From contig OY969564.1 of the NCBI GenBank assembly GCA_963701095.1, positions 864,001 through 928,000 of the forward strand: a DNA stretch of 64,000 bases, read 5' to 3'. The notes beneath the pieces are model-generated. The model searched no databases and was not told the origin of the DNA. It saw nothing but the letters and a program-made list of their open reading frames with translations. Source of the stretch: an uncultured Methanoregulaceae archaeon. Its GTDB lineage: Archaea > Halobacteriota > Methanomicrobia > Methanomicrobiales > Methanospirillaceae. The position numbers and the translations under genes were made by a program. This document shows, piece by piece, positions 52,646-59,753 of the stretch (the stretch's first letter is position 1; the number at the start of each line of letters is the position of its first letter).

Positions 52646-53784
52646 ATGGACACGAAAACTTTTGGTCCTCTCCCCGGTTCAACTATTCTCACCGGGGTTT
52701 CCGGCAAAAAAGCCATTGTCATGGCCGCAAACGTCCGTATCGCCACGGTTGCGGAAGGTATTTTCAAGGCCGCAAAAGATTCCGATTCGGCGGTATTCAT
52801 GGAACTTGCCCGGTCTGAATCCGATCTTTCCGGCGGGTATACCGGGATGACGCCGCAGGTCTTTTCGGAAAAGATGCGGGCAGCTGCAAAAGCGACCGCA
52901 TGCGATATCTGGGCACTCCATGCCGATCATATCTCGATTAAAAAAGGGGATCCCGCCGAAATCGCCGGGACAAAGCAATTGATCGATGCACAGGTCAACG
53001 CCGGGTACACATCCTTTGCCATCGATGCCTCGCACCTTTTCAACTTCCAGGGAAAAAATGTCCGTGAGGAACTCGAGCTGAACATCAAGGCCACATCCGA
53101 GATTGCCCGGTATATCCGGCAGAAAATGAACGGCAGGGAATTTGGCCTTGAAGTTGAAGTAGGTGAGATCGGGAGAAAAGACACCGAAGGCCTGATCCTG
53201 ACAAAACCGGAGGAAGCCGTCGGATTTATCAAAGCTCTCAATGAAAACGATGTCTATCCTCATGTGATTGCCATAGCAAACGGCAGTTCGCACGGCCATT
53301 CCTACGACGCGAACGGGAATGTGGTCGAACAACTCTCGATCGATATCCCCCGGACACAGGAGATTGCAAAAGCACTCCGGGATAACCATCTCAACGTCGG
53401 GATAGCCCAGCATGGTATCACCGGAACCCCGCGGGATCTTATCAACCTGCATTTCCCCAAAGGAGATATCATCAAGGGAAATGTCGGTACATTCTGGCAG
53501 GATGTGGCGTTTGGCACCCTCAAAATCTACGAGCCTGCCCTGTACAAGGACATTATGGACTGGACCCTCGAGAATACCTGCCGGAAAATCCCAATAAAAA
53601 AGACAAGCAGATTATTGACGGTAACTGCAAAAACGCAATCAAAGTATTCTACAAAGAGATTTACGGCGTCGATGAAAAGACCAATAAAGCCATGCAGGCG
53701 ATGGCGTATGCCGAGAGTCTTGTCTTTTTCAGGGCATTTGGCGCATACGGTACCGCTTCAGCCATCCGGAAATCCCTGCACTGA
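52646..53784 (+). CDS. fba: Class II fructose-bisphosphate aldolase (frameshift at about 53574)
   Basis: HADH, IDASH, EVEVGEIG, GSSHG, QHGITG, KGNVGT; restored C-terminus ...FFRAFGAYGTASAIRKSLH*. Confidence 0.88.
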
Positions 53785-53844
53785 TCCGGTCGGCTCCCCA
53801 ACCCTTTTTAGCATCCGGAAACGATTTCCTATTATTGAACGCGT

Positions 53845-54942
53845 ATGCCAAAAACCACGATCTCCGTTATTAAAGCAGATGTGGGCAGTTTCCCGGGCCA
53901 TTCCCGCACTCATCCTAAGCTGCTTGAAAAAGCGGCGCAGATGCTTAAAGCCGAACGAGGCAAACTGCTCACCGATTCCTTTGTGACCCACTGTGGCGAT
54001 GATATCGAACTTATCATGACCCATAAACGAGGCGTCGATGATAAAGAGATCCACAAGCTTGCCTGGAACGTCTTTGTGGAATGCACAAAAATTGCCAAAA
54101 CCCTTAAGCTGTATGGAGCCGGCCAGGACTTACTTACCGATGCGTTCTCGGGGAATGTCCGGGGCATGGGCCCGGGGGTTGCCGAGATGGAGTTTGATGA
54201 ACGCAGTTCGGATCCTGTCCTTATCTTCATGGCAGACAAAACCGAACCCGGCGCGTGGAACTTTTATCTCTACAAGATCTTTGCCGACCCGTTTAATACG
54301 CCGGGTCTGGTTATCGATCCGGCCCTGCACGACGGTTTTGTGTTCGAAGTCCATGATCTGGTAAAAAAACGAAAGGTGCGGTTCTCCTGTCCCAAAGAGA
54401 GTTACAGTGTGCTTGCCTATATCGGGTCGCCGTCCCGGTACGTTATCAAGCACGTCTACAAAAAGGACGGGATCATTGCTGCCTCGACCAGCTCCCAGAG
54501 TCTCAACATGATAGCCGGCCGGTACGTGGGAAAAGATGACCCGGTCATGATTGTGAGAGCGCAAAGCGGTTTTCCTTCCATGGGTGAAGTGATCGAGCCC
54601 TTTACCACACCGGTACTGGTAGCAGGCTGGATGCGAGGATCCCATTACGGTCCGTTCATGCCGGTCGGTCTGTGCGATGCTAACTGCACCCGGTTTGACG
54701 GTCCGCCCCGGGTCATCTGTTTTGGGTTCCAGATCGCAAATGGTGCCCTTATCGGACCTGCCGATATGTTCGACGATCCCGGTTTTGACCGGGTCAGGGC
54801 GCGCTGCAACGAACTTGCCGACACGATCCGGGCCCAGGGCCCCTTCGAACCCCACCGGCTTTCTCCGGAAAACATGGAATACACGACTCTTCCCCAGATA
54901 GAAAAGGCGCTGGAAAAACGATGGGAAGACATTGCAGAGTAA
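53845..54942 (+). CDS. Bifunctional fructose-1,6-bisphosphate aldolase/phosphatase (class V FBPase)
   Basis: SVIKADVG..PGH, GDD, LYGAGQDLL, DKTEPGA, YVGKDDP (Schiff-base Lys), GWMRGSH.GP, GPFEPHRL, EYTTLP. Confidence 0.95.
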   Translation: MPKTTISVIKADVGSFPGHSRTHPKLLEKAAQMLKAERGKLLTDSFVTHCGDDIELIMTHKRGVDDKEIHKLAWNVFVECTKIAKTLKLYGAGQDLLTDAFSGNVRGMGPGVAEMEFDERSSDPVLIFMADKTEPGAWNFYLYKIFADPFNTPGLVIDPALHDGFVFEVHDLVKKRKVRFSCPKESYSVLAYIGSPSRYVIKHVYKKDGIIAASTSSQSLNMIAGRYVGKDDPVMIVRAQSGFPSMGEVIEPFTTPVLVAGWMRGSHYGPFMPVGLCDANCTRFDGPPRVICFGFQIANGALIGPADMFDDPGFDRVRARCNELADTIRAQGPFEPHRLSPENMEYTTLPQIEKALEKRWEDIAE

Positions 54943-55030: not shown

Positions 55031-55267
55031 ATGGTTAACGGAATTGTTTTGCCCATAAAGAAAGTGTTTGCCCTCGTTGATTCCAAAATAATCGTTGAGA
55101 TCAAAGATGAGGGGCGTAAACTCCAGGGCCGGCTTGTAGCAGTGGATGAGTATCTCAATATTCACATGGACGAGACCATAGAATTTGTCAACAACGAGCG
55201 CGGCCGCAGCCTTGGGACTGTTGTTATCCGGGGCAATAATATCCTTACTATAGCCCCGGTCCTGTGA
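55031..55267 (+). CDS. Sm-like (Lsm) RNA-binding protein
   Basis: G.LVAVDEYLNIHM (Sm1), VVIRGNNI (Sm2). Confidence 0.92.
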   Translation: MVNGIVLPIKKVFALVDSKIIVEIKDEGRKLQGRLVAVDEYLNIHMDETIEFVNNERGRSLGTVVIRGNNILTIAPVL

Positions 55268-55290
55268 GAGGAAAACGAGGTATACCTACC

Positions 55291-55635
55291 ATGGCTGAAA
55301 TTGAAGACGAAGCATTTGTCCTGATCCAGTCCCACCCGGAAGGGATGCTCCAGAGTGAGCTTTGGAAGGAACTCGGTGTCGACAGCCGGAAATGTTCAAG
55401 GATCGTAAAGAAACTCGAAGAGAGCGGCCTTATTGACCGCGTCGAATTTAAAAAAGAGGGGATCAAGACCTATCTTTTAAAGGCAAAAATGCAGCCTGTC
55501 CACCCTGAGGACCTGCTTGCCGGCGATGAACTGATTCCCTGTATCGCGTGCGACCTTGAATGCGTCGTTCAGGAATGTCATCCCCTCATGGACTGGATGT
55601 ACCAGCTTGCAATTGTCGGGAGCGGCAACCAGTAA
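55291..55635 (+). CDS. wHTH plus Cys-cluster protein, probable TFE-beta / RPC34-like factor
   Basis: G.LQSELWK.LG.DSR..SRIVKKLE..GLI.R; PCIACDLECVVQECHPLMDW; adjacent to Lsm. Confidence 0.7.
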   Translation: MAEIEDEAFVLIQSHPEGMLQSELWKELGVDSRKCSRIVKKLEESGLIDRVEFKKEGIKTYLLKAKMQPVHPEDLLAGDELIPCIACDLECVVQECHPLMDWMYQLAIVGSGNQ

Positions 55636-55684
55636 CCGGGGCAAAACCCGGTTTCGATAGTATTTACCCGTTTTTTTTACTTCC

Positions 55685-56185
55685 ATGACCCGCCTGACAC
55701 TGCCGCTTATCCTGGAATGCCTTCTTTTTTTTGTGCCACTCAATATCTATGTGATCGGCGATCATATGGCAAACGGTGTCCAGTGGGCCTTTTTCCGGTA
55801 CCAGCAGAGTTACCTGGGGAACAGCCTGATCCTTGTGAACAAGGATATCCATTATGTTGCAGCCGGTATTCTGAGAGGTTCAAGTGCGACAGGAACCATA
55901 ATCTGGGTATCAGGTGCTTTTCTTCTTTTTATCGCGGTCATTATCCTTGCGATTGCGTTTGCTTTGCATAAATCCGAGCTTACAAAACCTGCGGGCGGAC
56001 TCACCATTCTTGCAGGAGCTCTCTTTATTATTGCGATGATCGTCGAATACGGGGCCCTTTTTACAAACGATCATGGTTCTTCCGTCCCCGTGGGTGCTCC
56101 CCTCATTATCGTTTCCGGAATTTGGTTATTCGTAGGAACATTCGATGAGGAAGATGAAGACCCGACCGGGCCAGCATCTTCCTGA
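55685..56185 (+). CDS. Hypothetical membrane protein
   Basis: Four hydrophobic helices, acidic tail. Confidence 0.7.
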   Translation: MTRLTLPLILECLLFFVPLNIYVIGDHMANGVQWAFFRYQQSYLGNSLILVNKDIHYVAAGILRGSSATGTIIWVSGAFLLFIAVIILAIAFALHKSELTKPAGGLTILAGALFIIAMIVEYGALFTNDHGSSVPVGAPLIIVSGIWLFVGTFDEEDEDPTGPASS

Positions 56186-56320
56186 AAGAATTGCATTCCG
56201 GCCATAAATTACGGGAAATCGGCAATTTCCCCATCATAGAAGTCAACTATTTATTGCAAAAATATCAGATTATAGGTAGAGAGGCAGGCATAACACCCGC
56301 CCCTTTGGAAGTTCCTGCTG

Positions 56321-58000
56321 ATGATATCCGTCCTCTTCGTCGATGATAACACTGATTTTCTTGCCCCGTTCCGGCCTGTTCTTGAAAAGACCGGCGAGGT
56401 CAGATTGGAGATGGTGAACTCTGCGAAGCAGGCAATCGAGAAACTTAAAGGCCGGAGCTTTGATGTCATTGTCTGTTACGAGGAGAACGCGCCGGTTAAC
56501 GGGATTGAGTTTGTCTCCGATATGGATGGTATCGGCTTTTTACGATATATACGCTCCATGGGAAATCCTACACCGGTCATAATCTTCCACCGGAAAGGCG
56601 AGAACCGGGTCACTTTTGAAGAGATCAGTAACGGTGCTGATATTACCGTCCAGCGGACGGGAGACCTTCGTGCACCTGCTGCTGACCTGGTAACGCTTAT
56701 CAAACAGGCAGCACTCCGCAAGAAATCCGAACGTGACGTCAAACTGGAAAAAGATCAGCTCACGGCGATTCTCTCGGCAACGCCTCTTGGGATATTCCAG
56801 ATGCGTAACGCCGTTATCGAGTGGATCAACCATCCGCTTACGGCGCTCCTTGGGGCACAGGAGTCTTCGATCGTGGGAAAACCGGTCCGGTCGCTTTTTA
56901 AGAGTGACGAAGAGTTTATGCAGGTTTTCCGGGATCTCCAGATTCACCGTGATGTACTCGGGAACGGTTGTGCGGAATGCGAGCTGGTGCGGCCGGGCGG
57001 CAGTATAATTGCCTGTACGCTGCAGGCCCGGCTTCTCGATCCGCTTGATGCAAAAAAAGGCGGTACCGTAGTCGTTACCGATATCTCTGACAAAAAGAAG
57101 ATGCGGGATGCCCTCAAGGAAAGCGAAGCAAAGTACCGGGAAATGATGCAGAACACCCAGAGTATTATTGTGCGGATGGATATCCAGGGGATCATCACAT
57201 TCATTAATACCTATGCATCTGCATTCTTTGATTATCCCGAGGCCGACCTTGTGGGGAAAAATATTGTCGGCACCATTGCACCCGAGAAAAACCGGGGCGG
57301 CCACGACCTTTCGATGATGGCAAACGACCTGGGCTTTAATGCCGAAGGATATGCCATCAATGTCAGCGAAAATATCCGCAGGAACGGTGATATTGTCTGG
57401 ATTGCCTGGATCAACAAAGCTATCCGCGATACCCAGGGTCACATCGTCGAAGTCCTTTGTATCGGCCACGATATTACGGATCGGAAACAGACCGGTGAGG
57501 TGCGGATCAGCACCGACACCTGGAAAGACCAGGTCGTTGCCGATACCGATGTGCGCCAGGACGTTTTCGATGCCGTGTTCCACATCTGCACCGAGATATC
57601 TATTGAGGGAAGGGAAGGAAAAGCGGTTGGCACGACATTCCTTATTGGTGACACAAAAAACATTCTGGCCAAATCCCGGCAGATCATGCTCAACGCCTTT
57701 GAGGGTCACCAACCCGATATGCGCATGGTGACTAATCCCGATTTAAATGAGAACATCAAGGAATTTGCCCAGCTTGACGGTGCATTTGTCATCTCCGGAG
57801 ATGGATTTATAGAAGCGTCGGGACGCTACATTACGGTTGACTCAAGCAAAGTTACGCTCCCCAAAGGCATGGGTACACGCCATAATTCGGTTGCAGCTAT
57901 CACAAGTGTAACCCGGGCCGTTGGTATCGTCGTCTCCCAGAGCGGCGGCGGGATCACGATTTTCAAGAACGGACAGATCTTAAAGAAAATCAGCCTGTGA
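56321..58000 (+). CDS. Diadenylate cyclase (DisA_N/DAC domain) fused to a pseudo-receiver and two PAS domains
   Basis: EGREGK.VGT.F.IGD, IKEFAQLDGAFVIS, GMGTRHN, IVVSQSGG.IT.F..G (DAC); N-terminal VLFVDD; PAS/PAC DISDKK and DITDRK. Confidence 0.88.
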   Translation: MISVLFVDDNTDFLAPFRPVLEKTGEVRLEMVNSAKQAIEKLKGRSFDVIVCYEENAPVNGIEFVSDMDGIGFLRYIRSMGNPTPVIIFHRKGENRVTFEEISNGADITVQRTGDLRAPAADLVTLIKQAALRKKSERDVKLEKDQLTAILSATPLGIFQMRNAVIEWINHPLTALLGAQESSIVGKPVRSLFKSDEEFMQVFRDLQIHRDVLGNGCAECELVRPGGSIIACTLQARLLDPLDAKKGGTVVVTDISDKKKMRDALKESEAKYREMMQNTQSIIVRMDIQGIITFINTYASAFFDYPEADLVGKNIVGTIAPEKNRGGHDLSMMANDLGFNAEGYAINVSENIRRNGDIVWIAWINKAIRDTQGHIVEVLCIGHDITDRKQTGEVRISTDTWKDQVVADTDVRQDVFDAVFHICTEISIEGREGKAVGTTFLIGDTKNILAKSRQIMLNAFEGHQPDMRMVTNPDLNENIKEFAQLDGAFVISGDGFIEASGRYITVDSSKVTLPKGMGTRHNSVAAITSVTRAVGIVVSQSGGGITIFKNGQILKKISL

Positions 58001-58053
58001 TAACCTTCTTTTTATCGGGATTATACAATAGTCCGAAAGAGGAGTTGTATTTC

Positions 58054-58384: not shown

Positions 58385-59753
58385 TCAATGTTCGACCGGG
58401 TACCCTGCACGCACCCAGGCCTGCATACCGCCGAGAACATTGGTCACCTCAGTATACCCATACATCGCAAGTACGCTCACCCCAAGACTTCCCTTGTACC
58501 CGGAATCACAGTACACAAAAACCGGACGATTTTTGGGGATCTCCGGAATATGCTGTACAAGCTCGCCGATATATACCGGTAAAGAATCTGGAATATATCC
58601 GACCTTTTCACGGTTTTTCTTGTCCCGGACGTCAAGCACGAATGGCTTTTCACGGAACAGGAGATCGTTGAGATCCTGGACTGAACAGGTCCCGATCATC
58701 TCGACCGGCCGGGCAGCCCGGCACCATGAAGGAAAACCACCGGCAAGCCAGCCTGTTGTATTGTCATAACCAAGCCGCAAGAAGTGCCGGAACACAGGTG
58801 CGAGATTACCGTTGAAATCATCGATAAGCACAATCTGGCGGTTATAATCAAGGAACCAGCCGGCAAACGAAGGAATGCCGTCGCCCCAGATTGAAAAACT
58901 ACCCGGGATGTGCCCTGCTGCAAAGGCTGTCGGGGAACGTACGTCTACAATCTGGAATCCGGAAGCGATGAGAGATGTCAGGTCAGCTACAGGGACAGGG
59001 TATGGTCGCTTAAAGTCCAGAAGAAGTGCCGGCCCTTCCCGGTTGACTTTTTCCATCTGCCGGAAATAGGGAGGCAGGTACGGGGATTCGGCGGAACGCC
59101 GGGCGATAAACGCATCGTGTCCGAGTGCCAGGACCGGATTGGTACGTTTTTCGTACCCGATTGTGGAAAAAGGATGATCGGCAATTTCTTCACCGCACAC
59201 GGAACCGGCCCCGTGTGCCGGGCAGAGGATGACACCGTCCCCGAGCGGCAGGATCTTTCGCGTAATACTGGCATACATTTTTTCTGCCATCGCTGTTTTT
59301 TGGCCTGGCCCGGCTGAAATCTGTCCGTGCAATATCACCGGCAAAAAGCGTGTCGCCGGAAAAGACCATGTACGGTTCACGGGAGACTTCGGTGTCCACA
59401 AGGACAAAAGTCAGGCTTTCTTCCGTATGCCCCGGGGTTTCGAGGATGGAAATTTCCAATGTTCCGATCACAAACCGGGCGCCTTCATGGGCGATGTTCC
59501 CGTACGCAAAGTCCAAACGGGGACCGTGAAAGATCGGTGCCTCACTCCGGTGTGCAAGCTCCTGTGCCCCGGATACATAATCTTCGTTCCGGTGTGTTTC
59601 GAAGATATGGGTTATGATAGCGTCATGCCGGTTTGCGAGGTCGACATAGATATCGCAATCCCGCCGGGGGTCTATAACTGCCGCCTTTCCCCCCGATCCG
59701 ATTATGTACGAATTATGGGACAGACCCTCAGCAACGATGCGTTCAAGCCACAT
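58385..59753 (-). CDS. MBL-fold hydrolase fused to two rhodanese domains (frameshift at about 59315)
   Basis: IDPRRD, ETHRNEDY, TPGHT, FSGDTLF.GD, PAHGAGSVCG, DVR...F..GHIPG, CDSGYK. Confidence 0.88.

Follow-up and report, generated by a model that had tools for sequence, protein, structure and literature searches.

A predicted PAS-regulated diadenylate cyclase with a pseudo-receiver domain in a Methanoregulaceae archaeon

The DNA analysed here is a stretch of 64,000 nucleotides from an uncultured Methanoregulaceae archaeon (contig OY969564.1, positions 864,001 to 928,000 of the forward strand; hereafter "the window", with positions counted from its first letter), and our subject is a gene at 56321..58000 that encodes a diadenylate cyclase (DAC) domain behind a series of N-terminal signalling modules. 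The protein is cytoplasmic and composed of four modules, i.e., a receiver fold without its phospho-acceptor, two PAS domains linked through long helices, and a DAC domain whose catalytic residues are intact. We predict that it is a dimeric, PAS-regulated synthase of cyclic di-AMP (c-di-AMP) that operates independently of phosphorylation, a reading to which we assign a probability of roughly 60%. The signals controlling c-di-AMP synthesis are an open question, and the characterised cyclases DisA, CdaA, CdaS, CdaM and CdaZ/DacZ (the groups given by Roemling 2022, PMC10086821) have no classical ligand-sensing input. A cell's only cyclase that is wired to PAS domains is a natural system for biochemistry on c-di-AMP control.

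Domain architecture of the protein

The gene is a single open reading frame (ORF) of 559 residues with an ATG start, and its N-terminal start MISVLFVDD is common to its orthologs. Pfam recognises Response_reg (PF00072) at residues 4-111 (34.0 bits, with the cut-off at 30.2), PAS in two stretches (58.8 bits, the best at residues 271-385), and DAC (PF02457) at residues 427-552 (68.1 bits, with the cut-off at 27, spanning profile positions 3-118 of 119), matches that lie far beyond chance expectation. The NCBIfam PAS S-box model TIGR00229 also finds two stretches (95.2 bits), while the top NCBIfam model is NF041371, the haloarchaeal DacZ equivalog, with 111.1 bits against a cut-off of 430. This last match is confined to the DAC half of the protein (profile positions 115-263 of 270) and does not reach the cut-off for a full-length equivalog. 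For the N-terminal PK_C / DacZ_P domain there is no Pfam match at E ≤ 1 in the 559-residue protein, while the same library does detect it in the relatives P0170, P0187 and P0195.

These domain assignments bear out the architecture that an earlier note had read from the letters of this DNA, i.e., pseudo-receiver, PAS, PAS and a DacZ-like DAC domain, the last with NF041371 as the best NCBIfam model for the DAC half only. The sites that it named are likewise in place, with DGA at residue 486 (nucleotide 57776), RHN at residue 520 (nucleotide 57878), VIVCY at residue 49, VQR at residue 110, and DITDRK at residue 384. In the full-length AlphaFold2 (AF2) model (pLDDT 83.3), the receiver is followed by a helix at residues 117-153, PAS1 at 157-254, a second helix at 256-278, PAS2 at 282-384, the linker, and the DAC domain at 413-558. 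Coordinates of all features are collected in Table 1.

The DAC domain keeps its catalytic residues

The catalytic features of diadenylate cyclases described by Roemling 2022 (PMC10086821) are a DGA motif, the RHR of GTRHRxA, and a catalytic serine. Residues 484-558 align in HMMER with the Listeria monocytogenes CdaA structures 6hvl and 4rv7 such that DGA stands opposite DGA, GTRHN opposite GTRHR, and VVSQSGG opposite VVSEETG. Among 56 homologs, D486, G487 and S539 are invariant (the latter in 56/56), A488 is kept in 51, and T519, R520 and H521 are each kept in 55. The third position of the RHR motif is more permissive, with N522 heading a column of N45 S6 A2 T1 R1 V1.

The earlier note had presented RHN as a departure from the canonical RHR. 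The sequence GTRHNSVA does deviate from the strict RHR of GTRHRxA but follows the clade's own pattern, given that 68 of the clade's DAC domains have as their third residue any of N, A, S, G, T, V, R, L, Y, Q, E and F. RHN is ordinary for the clade because this position varies throughout it, including in short DacZ genes. We also considered RHN as a sign of inactivity and discarded it on account of the same clade-wide variability.

A catalytically dead domain, in which the protein would bind ATP or c-di-AMP as a receptor or regulator, could point to this asparagine and to Q540/S541, which occupy the place of E-E in L. monocytogenes CdaA. However, DGA, T-R-H and the serine are conserved, the deviating positions vary across the DacZ-like clade, even where a short DacZ is the one DAC present, and the genome has no second DAC to supply a ligand. 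The DAC domain is moreover the most conserved part of the protein, with 86% mean identity among close orthologs. We thus consider a dead cyclase highly unlikely, and sequence conservation suggests that the domain is probably active.

The receiver fold lacks its phospho-acceptor

The receiver part folds with good scores as a separate AF2 domain model (pLDDT 84.3, pTM 0.81), and its top Foldseek matches are all receiver domains, i.e., RssB, PmrA, NarL, PrrA and PhoP (TMq 0.5-0.63, E 2e-5 to 1e-3). At the level of structure prediction, this confirms a receiver fold for the N-terminal domain. Both the full-length and the domain model place a strand at residues 96-101 where helix alpha4 is expected.

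When this domain is aligned with two local kinases that share the receiver-PAS-PAS arrangement, their 'FDAI[IV]SDYQMPGMDG' lies opposite 'FDVIVCYEENAPVNGIEFVSDMDG', which sets the acceptor aspartate of the local receivers opposite Y53 and the preceding serine opposite C52. Across the 56 homologs, the C52 column reads C22 S22 T8 I2 W1 A1 and the Y53 column Y40 F4 P4 N3 G2 H1 V1 C1. No aspartate occurs in either column in any of these 56 homologs or in any of 36 orthologs from named genomes, and Y53 is at least 90% conserved in the latter. The Thr/Ser position of strand beta4 is His90 (S13 G10 H9 A8 C5 T4 and others in the 56 relatives) and the Lys position of strand beta5 is Arg112 (K21 R20 G5 S4 and others). 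The loss of the phospho-aspartate proposed in the earlier note therefore stands, with the site now placed at Y53 and C52 preceding it, while its claim of a missing conserved lysine holds for this protein but not for the relatives, 21/56 of which have Lys. Together, the alignments support a receiver that would not be phosphorylatable at the canonical site.

Compared with local receivers, the beta3-alpha3 loop carries an insertion of nine residues. Its residues G61, I62, E63 and F64 are each at least 90% conserved in the 36 orthologs, and residues 60-65 have an AF2 pLDDT below 50.

Were the protein instead a true response regulator, a histidine kinase would phosphorylate the receiver and thereby switch the cyclase on. 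The Pfam Response_reg score above its cut-off, the kinase-rich genome, and the N-terminal acidic pair D8-D9, which is present here and kept as D in 47/56 and 51/56 relatives, i.e., in most Methanoregula orthologs, would be in line with such a function. Yet there is no aspartate at or next to the acceptor position in 56/56 and 36/36 sequences, the Thr/Ser and Lys positions hold a histidine that is variable in relatives and an arginine, D8 has become His in the Methanolinea lineage, and in both AF2 models the predicted strand takes the place of helix alpha4. Control by phosphorylation thus appears exceedingly improbable.

PAS2 as the likelier candidate sensor of the two PAS domains

Conservation among 44 close orthologs climbs towards the output, with mean identities of 0.60 for the receiver, 0.60 for PAS1, 0.77 for PAS2 and 0.86 for DAC. 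The best-conserved stretch of PAS2, its pocket segment at residues 319-346, reaches 0.82 and thus exceeds PAS2 as a whole, and the linker between PAS2 and DAC also reaches 0.82, with I396, T398, W401, T409 and D410 as its invariant or near-invariant columns. Because its pocket segment is the best conserved, we consider PAS2 the likelier sensor.

In Foldseek comparisons, the tandem PAS part resembles the dimeric FixL PAS-A/B (8js5/8js6, TMt 0.68-0.71), DosP, PpsR and MmoS. PAS1 has a weak sequence match in the PDB (3mqo, residues 152-258, E 1e-4), while the best whole-domain match of a PAS2 profile against the PDB is the RpfR PAS domain 6dgg (E 1.9e-6). HMMER also aligns the PAS2 segment 'tiapeknrgghd' with 'ilmpepdrsrhd' and 'lmpepyrhehd' of FixL, and His328 comes to lie opposite the histidine of 'RSRHD'/'RHEHD', which we take to be the proximal heme ligand of FixL. 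His328 is a histidine in 44/45 close orthologs. Residues 324-329 within this conserved segment are the least confident part of the AF2 model, with a pLDDT below 50.

We followed up on heme as a possible cofactor in the rest of the genome. A region at 625-630 kb of contig C1 encodes an AhbD-like radical-SAM protein (heme b synthase model, 314.6 bits) alongside matches to AhbA (134.6 against a cut-off of 140) and AhbB (148.1 against a cut-off of 125), and an AhbC-like gene that is broken over at least two frames. This Methanoregulaceae genome is thus probably able to make heme, judging from its gene content. The Ahb cluster (L034, G000:C1:620001-634000) adjoins a gene for the catalase-peroxidase KatG (1169.6 bits), in a methanogen of the cytochrome-less type.

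A heme-PAS assignment was nevertheless not established. The FixL alignment ends at His328 with the remaining heme pocket not recognisably common, distant relatives lack the histidine, and the best whole-domain match is RpfR; heme is one candidate cofactor with low odds. A CxxC site in PAS1 (C216, C219) was discarded upon inspection by eye, with its first cysteine not kept in orthologs. The furthest-reaching possibility, i.e., that Methanoregula DacZ was replaced outright and the entire c-di-AMP pool of a strict anaerobe placed under a cofactor-binding PAS sensor, strikes us as a long shot; it would draw on the histidine in the most conserved PAS2 segment and on the Ahb pathway beside KatG. If true, the enzyme would link c-di-AMP, and through it potassium and osmolyte homeostasis, directly to oxygen or redox stress, and a diadenylate cyclase of this kind would for the first time have a defined input signal.

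The sensor-coupled form is the sole DAC of this genome and the usual one of its family

Across the single contig of 2,625,686 bases, PF02457 and NF041371 each match in one place only, which is this gene. The separate housekeeping dacZ that the earlier note had advised to look for is thus absent from the genome.

Among 24 other Methanoregula genomes, 22 have a DAC match, and 17 of these have exactly one; the two genomes without a match have completeness values of 73% and 56%. In 19 of the 22 genomes, the frame that holds the best match is 567-621 residues long, and the other three are frames of 395 residues (G005), of 244 residues with a frameshift (G007), or cut by the contig end (G011). The G007 ortholog (L019) matches in two frames covering residues 1-315 and 318-559, and a second DAC copy in G009 (G009:C18:297051-297425) contains two stop codons; each is either a broken copy or an assembly error.

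In the organism's own family, DAC matches occur in 118/121 genomes with one to four matches each. Among the 150 family matches listed (78 further ones stand outside these counts), 114 lie in frames of at least 500 residues, 23 in frames of 330-499 residues, and 13 in shorter ones. The five sister families of the order (16 genomes) mostly have their DAC in frames of 267-300 residues, which translate into short DacZ-like proteins with RHR or RHL and with DGV, not DGA. Given the long frames in genus and family and the short DacZ in the sister families, the sensor-coupled form is the usual DAC of Methanoregula and its family, and in Methanoregula it has replaced DacZ instead of supplementing it.

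Orthologs are abundant in public databases. In a word-index search that scored 8000 candidates, 567 proteins reached E ≤ 1e-5; the 120 matches listed are 65-100% identical, nearly all 552-562 residues long, and almost all with the same Pfam set. Where the databases name them, they are called 'PAS domain S-box protein [Methanoregula sp.]' (NCBI) or 'diadenylate cyclase' (JGI). Full-length matches in a scan of species-representative genomes show 62-94% identity in Methanoregula, 45-50% in Methanolinea and 34% in Methanospirillum, and others come from metagenome-assembled genomes (MAGs) of further Methanoregulaceae and Methanomicrobiales. A full-length receiver-PAS-PAS-DAC protein with 34% identity over residues 1-557 is also encoded on a short contig (L112, 3298 bases) whose title assigns it to a Spirochaetota MAG; this is either mis-binning or a case of transfer.

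The input modules are shared with local histidine kinases

The first 400 residues match 66 places of the genome at E ≤ 1e-5, the gene itself included. The best matches across the whole input module, with 27% identity over residues 2-394 and 3-362, are two proteins of 654 (L025) and 615 residues (L026) in which Pfam finds Response_reg, two PAS domains, (HisKA) and HATPase_c. In one of these kinases, the last PAS domain ends in DISERK, followed by an H-box-like 'VTRHDI'. Pfam and the alignment thus agree with the earlier note that local kinases carry HisKA/HATPase_c in this place, which in them follows a PAS end of the DI[TS]ERK type. The two kinases resemble the cyclase in the order of input modules and in the DI[TS][DE]RK-type PAS end before the output, but differ in their receivers, which score 70-78 bits and have Asp, Thr and Lys, and in an output that is a kinase core instead of DAC.

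The proposal that the cyclase was built by swapping a kinase output is upheld insofar as the same input is joined to another output, but not as a recent event. Identity to the local kinases is 27-31%, compared with the full-length orthologs of Methanolinea (45-50%) and Methanospirillum (34%), and judging from these values any output swap is ancient.

DAC is an output module behind many inputs across the clade

A search with the DAC domain alone (residues 400-559) yielded 1216 cluster representatives at E ≤ 1e-3, of which 206 reach E ≤ 1e-30. From 150 listed relatives, we scanned 67 against Pfam (E ≤ 1e-5), i.e., 58 of the first 69 listed and nine long ones (at least 400 residues) from the rest; omitted from the first 69 were ten of fewer than 240 residues and P0192 (332 residues), which matches only part of the domain. 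The N-terminal partner recognised by Pfam was PAS in 15/67 (with a receiver detectable in two), PKD in 11/67, PK_C / DacZ_P / PTS-EIIA combinations in 10/67, TPR in 7/67, an AAA ATPase in 4/67, and a TrkH potassium transporter, DUF7345 and an EF_TS-like piece in 1/67 each, while no partner was recognised in 17/67.

In a quick tree of 68 DAC domains (33/65 inner branches unresolved), the query falls inside a clade of 53 rows (SH-aLRT 95) together with all PAS, PKD, TPR, AAA and TrkH forms, and the EIIA/DacZ_P group stands apart. PAS-bearing rows occur in three places of the polytomy, and the number of PAS-DAC origins as well as the parent form are not settled by it.

Several architectures of this clade deserve mention in their own right. 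In P0131 (681 residues), a TrkH domain (158 bits) is fused to a C-terminal DAC domain with 61% identity to the one described here, a fusion that physically and directly connects potassium transport to c-di-AMP synthesis. Among P0135, P0144, P0155 and P0158, the P0147-P0179 group and L009/L010, further architectures are AAA-ATPase-DAC, TPR-DAC, and proteins with PKD that combine an apparent extracellular domain with a Pro/Thr-rich linker, a membrane segment and DAC (L009 and L010, 445-460 residues). Several genomes of the family have three to four DAC genes.

A model of PAS-regulated c-di-AMP synthesis and its main alternative

DAC activity requires two domains and two ATP molecules, according to PMC12699388. 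We propose that the protein would form a parallel homodimer through its receiver and PAS helices, by analogy to PAS kinases and to diguanylate cyclases in which PAS or receiver domains precede GGDEF, and would produce c-di-AMP only when its two DAC domains face each other with one ATP each. A signal read by a PAS domain, likely PAS2, would pass through the 26-residue linker and alter how often the DAC domains pair. This signal would probably be a small ligand or the state of a cofactor, and candidates are redox or oxygen sensed via a bound cofactor and a hydrophobic metabolite. The receiver, instead of being a phosphorylation switch, would aid dimerisation, act allosterically or offer a surface for docking, and the NGIEF insertion is a candidate for such contacts. 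The c-di-AMP output would be expected to act on potassium and osmolyte systems, as it does in Haloferax and bacteria. RCK_C domains occur at three loci of the genome as possible c-di-AMP targets, and DHH-DHHA1 proteins at four as possible hydrolases. A c-di-AMP receptor of the PstA/DarA type (PF06153) was not found in the genome, in a search whose control was positive in only 3/14 genomes.

The cyclase might alternatively be a constitutive housekeeping enzyme whose receiver and PAS domains merely replace the N-terminal domain of DacZ as a dimer scaffold, with the c-di-AMP level set elsewhere, i.e., through its expression or degradation or by partner proteins. The gene is the only DAC of its genome, and since the single dacZ of Haloferax is essential (PMC10249747), some basal production of c-di-AMP is required. 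Such a role would also agree with the degenerate receiver, with the receiver and PAS1 being the least conserved parts, and with the failure to establish a cofactor motif. A mere scaffold is at odds, however, with the elevated conservation of the PAS2 pocket segment (0.82 compared to 0.77 for PAS2 as a whole) and of the linker (also 0.82), and the genome's own sensor kinases use the same receiver-PAS-PAS module. It is also at odds with the range of sensor-type N-termini among DAC relatives (PKD plus membrane segment, TPR, AAA, TrkH, EIIA), which argues that DAC is generally an output under input control. We therefore regard constitutive synthesis as unlikely, though an explanation to be reckoned with.

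Several observations weigh against the PAS-regulated synthase that we favour. The receiver and PAS1 are just 60% conserved, and His328 is absent from 11/11 distant PAS-DAC relatives, in which the PAS2 pocket segment is not kept either; for these reasons different lineages may respond to different signals, or the protein may sense weakly. The AF2 model shows no long signalling helix in the linker between PAS2 and DAC, and the geometry of coupling is not evident from it. Since its pTM is low (0.48), the packing between domains is not predicted. RCK_C and DHH-DHHA1 are widespread (found in 13/14 and 14/14 control genomes) and hence no proof of a c-di-AMP network. The asparagine at the third RHR position carries little weight, as this position varies clade-wide and sole short DacZ genes carry RHL. 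A homodimer prediction for two copies of residues 120-559 scored 0.20 against a mark of 0.42 and is evidence neither way.

Genomic neighbourhood

Upstream on the same strand, Pfam identifies an aldolase-like gene, an archaeal fructose-1,6-bisphosphate (FBP) aldolase/phosphatase, an LSM protein, a winged-helix regulator and a DUF7549-like membrane protein, which precede the ortholog in 32, 31, 42, 43 and 24 of 80 loci, respectively. On the downstream side, genes are held in common with just 1/80 loci. No shared neighbours appeared with flanks of 1.5 kb, and those described here were found with flanks of 4 kb. A gap of 135 nucleotides with a TATA-like stretch before the gene and a T5 run after it suggest that it may have its own transcription unit (Table 1).

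Some neighbouring genes show features of their own. The genes for the LSM (Sm-like) protein and a 123-residue winged-helix protein (MarR/TrmB-like) at 55031-55635 (+) overlap by 4 nucleotides, and the pair is kept in 42-43/80 loci. The class-II-aldolase-like ORF at 52646-53986 (+; 446 residues, Pfam match at residues 15-306 only) overlaps the start of the FBP aldolase/phosphatase gene (53845-54942, +) by 142 nucleotides in another frame, and its long tail may result from reading on in a shifted frame. At 58385-59753 (-), a double-rhodanese ORF (58385-59407) overlaps an ORF with metallo-beta-lactamase fold (59190-59753) that lies in another frame; the corresponding tblastn matches in L035, the closest relative, adjoin each other in a single frame. 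The copy in the window thus looks frameshifted, i.e., a pseudogene or an assembly indel judging from this comparison. The split AhbC-like gene and a completeness estimate of 86% for a closed contig hint at indel errors in the assembly.

Table 1. Positions in the window of the cyclase gene, its domains and motifs, and adjacent features.
Feature	Residues	Positions	Strand	Basis
Whole gene, pseudo-receiver-PAS-PAS-DAC protein	559 in total	56321..58000	+	ORF list, Pfam, NCBIfam; stop codon 57998-58000
Receiver-like (pseudo-REC) domain	1-116	56321..56668	+	Pfam Response_reg; AF2 domain model; Foldseek
C52-Y53, site of the missing phospho-acceptor Asp	52-53	56474..56479	+	Opposite 'SD' of two local kinases
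Beta3-alpha3 loop insertion with nearly invariant NGIEF	about 55-69	56483..56527	+	Alignment, conservation
Helix joining receiver to PAS1	117-153	56669..56779	+	AF2 H117-153; H117-139 in domain model
PAS1	154-255	56780..57085	+	Second PAS stretch in Pfam and TIGR00229; AF2 PAS-like strand/helix pattern
PAS2, with DITDRK at its end	281-386	57161..57478	+	Pfam, Foldseek, profile against PDB
His328, within residues 319-346 of PAS2	328	57302..57304	+	HMMER alignment with FixL His
PAS-to-DAC linker (26 residues)	387-412	57479..57556	+	82% mean identity in close orthologs; W401 invariant
DAC domain	413-559	57557..57997	+	Pfam, DacZ model 115-263, CdaA alignment
DGA motif, D486 G487 A488	486-488	57776..57784	+	Motif position; CdaA alignment
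T519-R520-H521-N522, RHN for RHR	519-522	57875..57886	+	Motif position; conservation
Ser539, catalytic-serine position	539	57935..57937	+	Opposite Ser of CdaA 'VVSEE'
LSM protein, small winged-helix regulator, DUF7549-like membrane protein		55031..56185	+	Pfam; conserved upstream neighbours
AT-rich TATA-like stretch, candidate promoter, 45-71 nucleotides 5' of ATG		56250..56275	+	Sequence inspection
T5 run, candidate terminator, 9 nucleotides after stop		58009..58013	+	Sequence inspection

Comparison with known systems

The architecture is already catalogued and the protein an ordinary ortholog in a large public family. According to Braun et al. 2019 (PMC6741144), the five archaeal DAC classes DacV-DacZ go back to Corrigan & Gruendling 2013, and Braun et al. 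give Methanosphaerula palustris B8GHP5, Methanospirillum hungatei Q2FM57 and Methanoregula boonei A7I8S2 as representatives of DacV, DacW and DacX, respectively. Like the protein described here, DacX is a DAC-domain protein of Methanoregula. It is probably an ortholog, judging from genus-wide occurrence, as the long form is the usual and mostly the sole DAC of Methanoregula genomes. The suggestion in the earlier note that the architecture might be undescribed thus falls, given the classes DacV-DacX cited in 2019 and hundreds of public orthologs, some of them named diadenylate cyclase. The figure of the 2013 survey reportedly shows PAS and receiver domains in classes V-X. A 2023 survey by Galperin ('All DACs in a row') is likewise said to define 22 families. 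Galperin 2023 is also the reference that van der Does et al. 2023 (PMC10249747) give for a classification of N-terminal domains in revised form. Our literature search found no experimental study of a PAS- or receiver-linked DAC, and Galperin et al. 2018 on archaeal two-component systems make no mention of DAC, DisA or c-di-AMP. Three points may add to the catalogues, although some of them may already be given in the surveys of 2013 and 2023, i.e., that the sensor-coupled form is the genus's sole DAC and not an accessory one, that it contains a conserved pseudo-receiver with an invariant insertion of its own, and that DAC domains of the family stand behind many input modules with up to four genes per genome.

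Compared with DacZ/CdaZ proteins such as Haloferax volcanii DacZ and Methanocaldococcus jannaschii CdaZ, the protein shares the type of DAC domain and the status of sole DAC of its genome, while their N-terminal PK_C-like/DacZ_P domain is replaced here by receiver-PAS-PAS. With the short DacZ genes of the sister families it has the EGREG, QLDG, RH and S-x-SGG blocks in common, but these local genes carry DGV and S-E-S instead of DGA and S-Q-S.

On the input side, the protein has a tandem PAS fold that resembles that of the heme-PAS proteins FixL and DosP, and 'PEKNRGGHD' of its PAS2 aligns with 'PEPDRSRHD' of FixL. Unlike FixL, it has no recognisably common heme pocket beyond the histidine, which all 11 distant PAS-DAC relatives lack. 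The fatty-acid-binding PAS domain of RpfR is the closest to PAS2 as a whole domain among PDB profile matches.

The nearest functional analogy is perhaps offered by diguanylate cyclases with receiver or PAS domains in front of GGDEF, e.g., PleD, WspR and PAS-GGDEF proteins, in which the catalytic domains meet across a dimer whose geometry is set by the receiver or PAS modules. The protein described here would be comparable as a cyclic-dinucleotide synthase with N-terminal receiver and PAS modules, but its catalytic fold is unrelated, its predicted product is c-di-AMP instead of c-di-GMP, and its receiver appears not to be phosphorylatable.

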